Of a DNA stretch of 11,363 bases, positions 1 through 2,223 are shown one piece after another. This stretch comes from a virus. Lineage: Duplodnaviria; Heunggongvirae; Uroviricota; Caudoviricetes. The position numbers and the translations under genes were made by a program. The notes below the pieces were generated by a model, which worked only from the letters and a program-made list of their open reading frames with translations, was not told the DNA's origin and made no database searches. Numbering within the stretch: position 1 is the stretch's first letter; each line of letters starts with the position of its first letter. The stretch lies in the IMG/VR virus record IMGVR_UViG_2563366799_000008, one strand, 5' to 3'.

Positions 1-204
1 AAACGGCTCGATGACTTCCACCATGTTTTGCCATGGCAGAATCTGCTCCATGCGGGACAAGAAAATCTCTTTTCTGGTCTGACGGCGCTTACTGCTGAAT
101 TCACTGTCGGCGAAGGTAAGTTGATGACTCATGATGAACCCTGTTCCATGGCTCCAGATGACAAACATGATCTCATATCAGGGACTTGTTCGCACCTTCC
201 TTAA
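1..204 (+). CDS. 3' end of an ORF entering from upstream of the window; product unknown
   Basis: Frame 1 is open from the window edge to TAA at 202-204 (67 codons). About 49% GC, unlike the AT-rich genes that follow. Overlaps the next ORF by 74 nt in a different frame. Confidence 0.3.
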
Positions 205-742
205 AGGGATTAACATAGCCGATGCTTACAATCCTAAGCAATACATCCCGCCCATACCAAGAGAAAGCATCTATTTTTCATTTAATTATACAAATACCTT
301 GCAGCAGATCTATGCCGTTCCAGACGAGCAAATCATACATATTCACGGCAATTGTAGTTACGATGACGATCTCATACTTGGTCATAGTTTTAGGGTGGAA
401 AAGTCACTAAATCCATATATAGGACCGGATCAAGATACAAGAATAGCAGAGGCATACGACAGAATAAACGAATACTTCGGTAATACATTCAAGCCCAGCG
501 AAGACATAATTAAAGAAGAAAACGTTTTTTTCTCATCGCTTAAAAATGTGGACGAGGTCATCGTTTTAGGCCACTCGCTCGCCGAAGTTGACGGTGAATA
601 CTTTACTGAAATAAATAAAAGCATCCAAGAAAATGCTCGATGGATAGTTGCTTTATATAGAGGTGAGAAAAAATCAGGCAGTTTAGAAGATTATGGTATC
701 AGAGGCTCAAATATTTCTTACGTACAGTATGAAGATATCTGA
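131..742 (+). CDS. AbiH-like abortive-infection family protein (tentative), apparently lacking the family's N-terminal region
   Basis: 203-aa ORF, ATG start, AT-rich. Motifs SFNYTNT, IIHIHGN and VIVLGHSL as I remember them from AbiH-type proteins; this is recalled from memory, not searched. No good SD upstream; start overlaps the upstream frame-1 ORF. Confidence 0.55.
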
Positions 743-831
743 ATGAGACTTCATATTATAACTATAATTATGTAAAAAAGGCTGGTATTTTATACCTTGA
801 GGAAAATAGATAAGAGGAATGAGGTTTGGTT

Positions 832-2223
832 ATGATGAATTATACTGATGAGTCAACTTTTCTTGAAAAGTACAAACCGTTTAGGAAGTTTTGGACAATT
901 TTATCACCTCATTATGTATCTTTAATGCATGCACTTGCCAAAATGATAAGGGGAGGGAATCCAATTCAAGAACTACCTTCCAATGATGAGGATTTTCTTG
1001 CAGAGTATGAAACCTGTCTCAAAAATTGGAAAGACTCACAAAAAATCATATCTTTTGAGATTATTATTCGGCTGAGAGATATAAAAAGATTGGAAACTGA
1101 AAAAAAAGAGCACCATCGAAACAAGGATAAAGAAAATAAAGAAAAGTGTATTGATGAAATAAGTTTAAAAAAATTTGAAATTCTTATTCTTCGCCGTTGT
1201 ATTGACTCAATAATTTGGAGCATTCTTGATGAAGAACACTCTAGTTTGCGGCGTTTACCTATTAATGCAAGCAATGACAATCTATCAGAAGATAACATAA
1301 TTGATTCTATGGTCGCAGCCGATCTTATCAACCAGGACAAACACTCCGTAGCGATTGTCTCTGACATGAGCACATTTGTTCATGTGGGAGATTTAGTCAC
1401 CTTTAATCTACTGGATGGCTTCCAGCTCGTGGAAGTTAAAACAGGTGAAAAGAATAATGAGCTTTATGAAGCTGCTGAATTTTCTGTTATCTCAGAATGT
1501 CCGCACTTTGAAGAAAACTTCATTAACAATATGCCTGATAATGATGTTAAGCAATTTAATCGCATAAAAAGGCAAATCATTCGTGGCATGAATGTTCTGG
1601 AGGCGATTAATACTGGCGAGGGCTTTGACAACTTTCATCAGTCTAAAGTTAAAATCAATGAGATAGATCATCCGTCTGAATTTTATACCCACCGCTTAGT
1701 TAAAATGTGGGAGATTATTCGCGGAGGAAAAAATTGGGCAATTGATACTATTGATGAATGTTTGTTCTTAGGTATGTACCGTGATTCTGAAATGGGCTTT
1801 GTTGCCTTCAATGGATGGATGGATAGTCTCGGTATAAAAAGCCCTGTTGTGAATATAAATGATTCATTCTTTGACCCTTTGTCTCGACCATTTATGAGTT
1901 TGCATCTGCCAACTGAAATGCTCTCCGATCTCATGTCGGGACAAATAATCATCGTCATGTGTTTTGACAATGAACTTTTTTTTCACCGTGCTAACAAAAC
2001 GTACCCGGGTTTATATCTCCTTAGCGATGCAGCAAGAACAAAGCAGCCATTAGAAAATATTCTTCGTGTTGGTTCACAAGGGATAGCTTCTTACGTAGAT
2101 GGGAATACCAGCTTTTTAGGTAATGGTATTGAATCCCGTATCCTTTTCGATCAGCAACGACCCGACAACATTATTGAGTGGAGCTATGCTAGAAGCGATC
2201 TCAAAAAGCAACATGAAGCATAA
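832..2223 (+). CDS. hypothetical protein with a PD-(D/E)xK nuclease-like motif; candidate defence effector
   Basis: 463-aa ORF; track start TTG 826, but ATG 832 is preceded by GAGG at 821-824. About 33% GC. Residues HVGDLVTF...QLVEVK (nt ~1390-1440) fit the D...ExK catalytic signature. Lys/Glu-rich predicted helical stretch at residues ~80-125. No Walker A motif seen. Confidence 0.75.
   Translation: MMNYTDESTFLEKYKPFRKFWTILSPHYVSLMHALAKMIRGGNPIQELPSNDEDFLAEYETCLKNWKDSQKIISFEIIIRLRDIKRLETEKKEHHRNKDKENKEKCIDEISLKKFEILILRRCIDSIIWSILDEEHSSLRRLPINASNDNLSEDNIIDSMVAADLINQDKHSVAIVSDMSTFVHVGDLVTFNLLDGFQLVEVKTGEKNNELYEAAEFSVISECPHFEENFINNMPDNDVKQFNRIKRQIIRGMNVLEAINTGEGFDNFHQSKVKINEIDHPSEFYTHRLVKMWEIIRGGKNWAIDTIDECLFLGMYRDSEMGFVAFNGWMDSLGIKSPVVNINDSFFDPLSRPFMSLHLPTEMLSDLMSGQIIIVMCFDNELFFHRANKTYPGLYLLSDAARTKQPLENILRVGSQGIASYVDGNTSFLGNGIESRILFDQQRPDNIIEWSYARSDLKKQHEA

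Follow-up and report, generated by a model that had tools for sequence, protein, structure and literature searches.

A mobile prophage cassette with an IS5-interrupted abiH and an intact DS-37 gene, probably two independent defences

We analysed an 11,363-nucleotide stretch of DNA from a tailed virus of the Caudoviricetes (IMG/VR record IMGVR_UViG_2563366799_000008; the whole stretch is called the window below), the left end of which an earlier note, made from the sequence alone, had proposed as a candidate anti-phage defence locus. Very probably, this locus holds two independent single-gene anti-phage systems in tandem on a 2.4-kb mobile cassette, the first of which, abiH, is broken by the insertion sequence IS5 and the second of which, DS-37, is intact. 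Positions 201-2244 of the window would be the right-hand three quarters of that cassette, which would sit in the slot between hok/sok and the DUF977/replication genes of a Qin/Rac-type lambdoid Escherichia coli prophage bearing dicB and DicF. Both genes and their adjacency are already in the literature; the locus is real and is not new. The earlier note had not recognised the pairing as a described system, a view overtaken by the naming of DS-37 in 2025/2026 and by the report of its co-localisation with AbiH in 2026 (PMC13639185).

The layout given by the earlier note was correct: two codirectional + strand open reading frames (ORFs) of 203 amino acids (aa; 131-742) and 463 aa (832-2223), with 89 bp between them, are convergent with the - strand DUF977, replisome-organizer-like and ydaT genes. 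The left end of the window is organised as follows:

1-200, - strand: left end of IS5, the remainder of which lies outside the window
131-742, + strand: 203-aa ORF, an IS5/abiH chimera and not a native gene
201-204: TTAA, the IS5 insertion point; 201 is the first base of homology to uninterrupted prophages
201-742, + strand: abiH 3' remnant, AbiH residues 111-289 of 289 plus the stop, a pseudogene fragment
743-831, + strand: AT-rich spacer of 89 bp between abiH and DS-37
832-2223, + strand: DS-37 gene, intact, 463 aa, WP_000982358.1
2224-2244: right edge of the cassette, accurate to 1-2 bases, with its junction at CCATG
2245-2390: rest of the variable slot; homology to DUF977-bearing prophages with other cargo resumes at about 2390-2410

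The IS5 insertion and the abiH remnant

The first 200 bases of the window are 98-99% identical to the thousands of IS5 copies found in 2,420 E. coli genomes. By direct reading of the sequence, 185-200 holds the IS5 inverted repeat GGAAGGTGCGAACAAG in reverse complement and is followed by TTAA; translation of the - strand of 1-132 yields the N-terminus of the InsH transposase, covering its first 44 codons. All 65 E. coli genome matches to window 1-2500 retrieved by megablast begin at base 201. The sequence TTAAAGGGATTAAC is continuous within abiH at an intact locus, that of strain FDAARGOS_1058 (L001), and window 201-8500 is 99.95% identical to L001 6001-14300; the window therefore represents the same prophage plus one IS5.

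The intact L001 gene encodes an AbiH-family protein, WP_001297700.1, which is annotated as 302 aa long and measures 289 aa from its second ATG, the point at which the Pfam AbiH profile begins. This intact allele matches the whole PF14253 profile with 233 bits and retains the GNGFD, NYT and HG motifs that are invariant in our AbiH alignment (A5). The remnant in the window is identical to the C-terminal part of WP_001297700.1; it matches PF14253 with 128.5 bits (cut-off 30.9) across profile positions 119-258 of 260 only, and the PADLOC AbiH model at 2e-18. It thus passes the cut-off of the family hidden Markov model (HMM), but it is not full-length and has no N-terminal GNGFD loop. That loop (LYIIGNGFD) is invariant in A5 among relatives down to 42% identity, and it is lost here.

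The AbiH-like gene of the earlier note was hence placed in the right family, as both Pfam (PF14253) and PADLOC attest, but no 203-aa gene exists: codons 1-24 of the ORF are out-of-frame IS5 sequence, and the remainder are AbiH residues 111-289. The upstream ORF at 28-204, to which the earlier note had ascribed a guanine-plus-cytosine (GC) content of about 50%, is IS5 sequence too. Judged from its sequence, the abiH copy in the window is an IS5-truncated pseudogene that cannot act, so that only one of the two genes can work in this prophage. By lying after abiH codon 110, IS5 removes the N-terminal Rossmann/GNGFD part of the protein and so inactivates it.

An unbroken abiH would encode a SIR2-like ('SIRim') protein, relatives of which are thought to abort infection by NAD+ consumption. 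AbiH has been described as SIR2-like using HHpred and AlphaFold (PMC13064643) and has been assigned to the immune SIRim subfamily (bioRxiv 2024.09.18.613514). The NYT and HG motifs are conserved in A5 (N138 and H158), and the SIR2 fold itself is taken from the published comparisons. We found no experimental test of the E. coli AbiH lineage in the literature.

Other copies of the cassette are decaying as well, namely those of E. coli E308 (H21), L039/L053, L064 and L134; among them are an IS1 within the matched region (one copy), a DS-37 gene interrupted by an insertion (one copy) and frameshifts in abiH and/or DS-37 (two copies). The inactivation of either gene is therefore not peculiar to this window.

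DS-37: published phenotype, family and predicted fold

The translation of window 832-2220 is 100% identical to that of L001 6632-8020 (gene 6632-8023), which is annotated WP_000982358.1, and it also agrees with the 399 residues printed in Table S8 of PMC13092281. An alternative TTG start at 826 would yield a 465-aa version. In that study (DeWeirdt et al., DefensePredictor; Science 2026 / bioRxiv 2025), WP_000982358.1 was cloned as a single coding sequence, 'SC24', and named DS-37. Its Table S6 gives SC24 as NZ_QOXM01000003.1 26984-28375 (assembly GCF_003334665.1, E. coli), with defensive = TRUE and the category "Predicted novel defense gene", and its Table S7 lists protection, as -log of the efficiency of plating (EOP), of 6.5 for Bas1, 4.8 for Bas9, 4.3 for Bas69, 4.0 for Bas3 and 1.9 for SECphi27. 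The host in these tests was E. coli MG1655 carrying plasmid constructs, with the pLAND screen backbone in Table S7 and MG1655 pCV1-SC24 in Table S11. Because of the protein identity together with Tables S6-S8 of PMC13092281, the 463-aa gene of the window is a validated, named single-gene defence system, and the anti-phage role that the earlier note had proposed for the locus is borne out for this gene by Tables S6 and S7. A full-text literature search for the accession WP_000982358.1 retrieved no match. According to a phage-plasmid preprint, the defence systems carried by SSU5-supergroup phage-plasmids include both AbiH and DS-37.

The close DS-37 family is small, with 48 clusters (90% identity) that come from Enterobacterales and Aeromonas. 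When 1.84 billion representatives were searched with a profile, 681 clusters were retrieved at E <= 1e-3, mostly of 430-500 aa, and this family size of about 680 counts clusters at 50% identity. Wherever a cluster has a source name (Pseudomonas, Vibrio, Colwellia and others), the name given to the product is "hypothetical protein". A scan of genome contigs for DS-37 relatives gave 3 loci only, and tblastn found nothing in 50,697 isolated phage genomes. Some distant members are 670-690 aa long (L018 5001-7037, which is P0165, and P0162, P0166 and P0182) and carry about 250 additional N-terminal residues that have no Pfam match; one of these overlaps the stop of a SRAP-family gene, with imuB/dnaE2-like genes close by. 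When 102 family members were scanned with PADLOC, single ones matched the E2 and E1-E2 models at E ~1e-5.

Seven residues (D178, D187, E201, K203, G205, R244 and Q248) are invariant in 137 relatives, down to about 20% identity. The ExK sequence of DS-37 is E201-V-K203, with D187 ahead of it, and the PD-(D/E)xK motif that the earlier note had read in the 463-aa protein is therefore well founded, since D187, E201 and K203 are all among the residues that do not vary across the 137 relatives. An AlphaFold2 model of DS-37 (predicted local distance difference test score, pLDDT, 80.6; predicted template-modelling score, pTM, 0.82) divides the protein into three parts:

residues about 52-131: long N-terminal helical hairpin (AlphaFold2 model)
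residues about 150-260: predicted PD-(D/E)xK-like core, with D178, D187, E201, K203, R244 and Q248
residues about 263-463: C-terminal alpha/beta domain (AlphaFold2 model)

Within the modelled core, a helix (153-167) is followed by strands at 172-176, 188-192 and 196-200 and by a second helix (206-221). In this model D187 precedes the second strand and the ExK lies at the end of the third, which fits the PD-(D/E)xK order, and alignment and model together put the conserved D...(D/E)xK residues on a beta-hairpin that follows an alpha-beta unit.

We lean somewhat towards DS-37 being a PD-(D/E)xK nuclease, given its conserved motif, the order of its secondary-structure elements and a published, though weak, HHpred match. 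The HHpred match (Table S8 of PMC13092281) carries the label PDDEXK / PF08378 NERD, covers residues 154-204 and has a probability of 0.47. Row SC24 of the same table lists 'EXK position 210-212, D position 199', positions that do not fit the 463-aa sequence, in which 210-212 is E-L-Y, 199 is L and the sole core ExK is at 201-203. Fold search lent the nuclease assignment no support. Profiles built from 25 and from 137 DS-37-family sequences matched no PDB sequence, and about 100 remote relatives searched against Pfam, PADLOC v2, NCBIfam and PHROGs gave scattered singletons and no family. An alignment with hhalign of the family profile to single Mrr_cat and PDDEXK_4 proteins of neighbouring loci gave a probability of 0.1, a test too insensitive to weigh for or against the assignment.

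In the likeliest mode of action, which is inferred, the core with D187, E201 and K203 would form a Mg2+-dependent PD-(D/E)xK/NERD-like nuclease. The helical hairpin at the N-terminus and the C-terminal domain would restrain it until infection, upon which it would cut phage DNA, or phage plus host DNA.

The cassette, its slot and its prophage

The cassette is found in 65 of 5,426 complete E. coli genomes, and the neighbouring DUF977/replication block in 1,540. An empty site is preserved in E. coli A20 (L047, 3346), in which exactly L001 5638-8044, or 2,407 bp, is missing; 35 bp of this cassette precede the likely abiH start and 21 bp follow the DS-37 stop. The CCATG of its right junction also occurs at its left junction, outside the window. 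In intact relatives hokD with the sok RNA lies to the left of the cassette, and elsewhere the slot between DUF977 and hokD holds queH (an ST131 strain), small nin-type genes (CFT073) or a truncation (ECCRA-119). The cassette behaves as prophage hotspot cargo, being present or absent at a fixed slot that can hold alternative cargo. The earlier note had suggested horizontally acquired defence cargo in a prophage hotspot and had proposed comparing this junction across related prophages; the comparison agrees with that suggestion, the cassette being variable, with other cargo or nothing in its slot. The empty allele reads CCATGTGAATT, an imperfect repeat, and for this reason its origin is not a clean repeat-mediated deletion. 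We also considered the cassette as a small transposon and dropped the idea, as the CCATG repeat is imperfect and the ends carry no similar inverted termini.

IncFIB plasmids of about 110 kb from Enterobacter, Klebsiella and Raoultella carry the same pair, about 91% identical and with a 90-bp spacer. The neighbours of the pair on these plasmids (DNA ligase, PhoH, a Gp49 family protein and glutaredoxin) suggest a phage-plasmid. Being present both in the prophage and on the IncFIB plasmids, the pair therefore travels as a unit between unrelated mobile elements.

The AT-richness of the cassette is real, but the figures of 33-35% GC against about 50% in the earlier note were overstated: pooled, the two-ORF region has 37% GC and the remaining window 47%. 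Taken separately, the values are 37.5% for the abiH remnant (201-742), 36.8% for the DS-37 gene (832-2223), 28% for the spacer, and 46.7% for the window elsewhere (2486-11363), in which the replication genes reach 52-54%. A sigma-70-like match in the spacer (807-836, 9/12) is weak and at chance level, and a scan of 1-2600 for promoters and terminators returned nothing beyond shuffled expectation. Since only about 35 bp of the cassette precede the likely abiH start, the cassette probably relies on a promoter in the conserved flank on the hok/sok side.

To the right of the slot, the following features identify the prophage:

2486-2908, - strand: DUF977
2949-4025, - strand: replisome-organizer-like gene, 358 aa
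4091-4516, - strand: ydaT
6557-6608, + strand: DicF antisense small RNA (Rfam RF00039, 72.5 bits, full length)
about 6783-6971: dicB

The presence of DicF, dicB, ydfA and ydfD marks it as a dicB prophage of the Qin/Rac type. Further to the right, a + strand ORF of 823 aa (7253-9724), for which related records give plain 'exonuclease', has an acidic Q/E-rich middle and a C-terminal region that by eye resembles a DEDD-type 3'-5' exonuclease.

One system or two, and relation to known systems

The neighbours described next concern DS-37 relatives at 55% identity or less. A PD-T4-5-like Abi2/HEPN gene lies 17-25 bp upstream of relatives on Pantoea and Erwinia plasmids and on a metagenome contig, and a DUF3644/EC042_2821 HEPN-REase gene, which matches the PADLOC candidate PDC-S19, lies 17 bp upstream of the one in Dickeya (L005). 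The Abi2/HEPN-paired relatives (L002-L004, L010 and L014) and the Dickeya relative are at 42-55% identity, with gene order and strand as they are with AbiH. The Pseudomonas relative has a DUF900 hydrolase gene 196 bp upstream, the Morganella relative has two unknown genes as neighbours, and on metagenome contigs (L044-L046) a row of Fic, Ser-Thr kinase and DS-37-like genes, with gaps of 18 and 64 bp, lies near an integrase gene; the last gene of such a row, P0100, is about 21% identical to DS-37. No codirectional upstream partner is present in Aeromonas, where the relative stands beside a divergent AAA_15/UvrD-helicase pair, or on Rahnella and Ewingella plasmids. Solo relatives were also found in P2-like prophages at no fewer than three positions: after gpU, after gpD, after int and beside gpV (L007, L008, L032, L033, L038 and L040-L043).

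For the AbiH side, 159 AbiH loci from viral and metagenome contigs were searched with the DS-37 family HMM. None of the 92 divergent AbiH loci (<70% identity, with at least 1.5 kb available downstream) had a DS-37 relative. In the close AbiH clade a DS-37 relative accompanies 15 loci, and contig ends truncate 2 others; a further three close orthologues (87-89%) have other downstream genes. In one such locus (L062, 5163-5915) the gene downstream encodes a 251-aa Cys-rich protein, and in L131 and L133 (about 5280-6420) a small membrane protein is followed by a protein of 163-247 aa. Co-occurrence across divergent homologues of both genes, which would be expected of an obligate pair, was thus not seen, and each gene has both close and distant relatives that lack the other. 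Taking both surveys together with the protection that DS-37 gives when cloned alone, we read the pair as two self-sufficient defences stacked in one lineage and not as an obligate system. The two genes would co-travel as a unit, with neither needing the other.

A different explanation, which we regard as unlikely, is that AbiH and DS-37 form a functional two-gene system in which one is accessory or second-stage to the other, and in which IS5 would cripple the whole. PMC13639185 reports 240 of 341 DS-37 instances (71%) co-localised with AbiH as a recurrent conserved gene pair, and its authors suggest an accessory role or synergy; moreover, the pair is gained and lost as a single 2,407-bp unit, and it keeps the same order and a spacing of 89-90 bp in two unrelated mobile elements at about 10% divergence. 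However, the same article has only 12% of 1,885 AbiH instances co-localised with DS-37, leaving 88% without it, and our survey adds the 0 of 92 divergent AbiH loci and 0 of 3 close AbiH orthologues given above. DS-37 cloned alone gives 2-6 logs of protection (PMC13092281), AbiH is a proven one-gene system (PMC12322248; bioRxiv 2024.06.14.598830), and DS-37 relatives stand alone in P2-like prophages and elsewhere.

We also think it improbable that the DS-37 family is a portable module which docks behind unrelated abortive-infection effectors and cooperates with them, for example through a shared sensor or as a backup executor. Codirectional upstream neighbours do lie close by in independent contexts, namely AbiH, Abi2/HEPN, DUF3644, DUF900 and Fic plus kinase. 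Nevertheless, the partner families are validated or candidate stand-alone defences, with PD-T4-5 (PMC9519451) and the DUF3644 proteins HEC-08 and Ishtar as examples, and support for stand-alone defence by the SIR2/HEPN partner families comes from PMC9519451, PMC3710099 and two preprints. DS-37 itself works alone, many relatives are solo, mobile-element hotspots normally hold unrelated defence genes in dense arrays, and the sample amounts to about a dozen contexts that are not phylogeny-corrected. If such a module did exist, DS-37 could serve as a backup triggered by phage inhibition of the effector upstream, and the IS5-disrupted allele described here would be its natural 'partner-less' state; the only feature in which something new may lie is the recurrent position of DS-37 relatives directly behind SIR2/HEPN Abi genes.

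It is scarcely credible that the 203-aa ORF yields a functional, shortened AbiH in the form of an IS5 fusion, for although it is an uninterrupted ORF with an ATG start and still has the conserved motifs NYT and HG (A5 positions N138 and H158), its first 24 codons are out-of-frame IS5 sequence, the first 110 AbiH residues are gone, and with them the LYIIGNGFD loop and further N-terminal positions that are invariant in A5, and no 203-aa form occurs among 1,613 AbiH relatives, fragments apart.

We would like to note several points that weigh against our reading of two independent defences, the second of them a working nuclease. The tight co-mobilisation of the pair may leave room for synergy, IS5 now probably cuts DS-37 off from its likely flanking promoter, and the published DS-37 phenotype is from MG1655 plasmid constructs and not from the native prophage. 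As to the nuclease, DS-37 has no match in Pfam, NCBIfam, PHROG, PADLOC v2 or PDB sequences, the published HHpred probability is low, and the EXK and D positions of Table S8 disagree with the sequence numbering (PMC13092281). The HMM searches that the earlier note had proposed for both proteins accordingly had a mixed outcome, the first matching AbiH in Pfam and PADLOC but the 463-aa protein remaining without a match.

An annotation of the DefenseFinder type would at present flag both AbiH and DS-37, and the precise boundaries of the cassette and its empty-site allele are now defined. The natural allele with abiH knocked out by IS5 and DS-37 intact could be used to separate the contributions of the two genes in a native prophage. 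The DS-37 family is large (about 680 clusters) and has a D-D-ExK-R-Q signature, with no Pfam or PADLOC v2 model and no solved or recognisable fold.

In how it may work, DS-37 is analogous to Shedu (SduA, DUF4263) and to NERD-domain systems, which are likewise partner-free proteins of about 400-500 aa with a D...ExK nuclease core and flanking non-catalytic domains. It differs from them in that homology is undetectable: the PADLOC SduA model matched 1 of 102 family members (E = 0.039), and DS-37 has no Pfam NERD or DUF4263 match and no fold match. Compared with AbiH of Lactococcus lactis (PF14253; SIRim-type SIR2 proteins), the intact E. coli allele fits the whole profile and has the same motifs, whereas the window copy consists of residues 111-289 only. 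Compared with the published DS-37 (PMC13092281), the protein is identical over 463 aa (100%), but here it is encoded in a native prophage, downstream of an IS5-disrupted abiH. The adjacency of the two genes is identical to that of the AbiH/DS-37 'synton' of PMC13639185; relative to the accessible part of that article, the 2.4-kb boundaries, the empty site, the swapping of HEPN partners and the solo copies in P2-like prophages are seen in the present analysis only.

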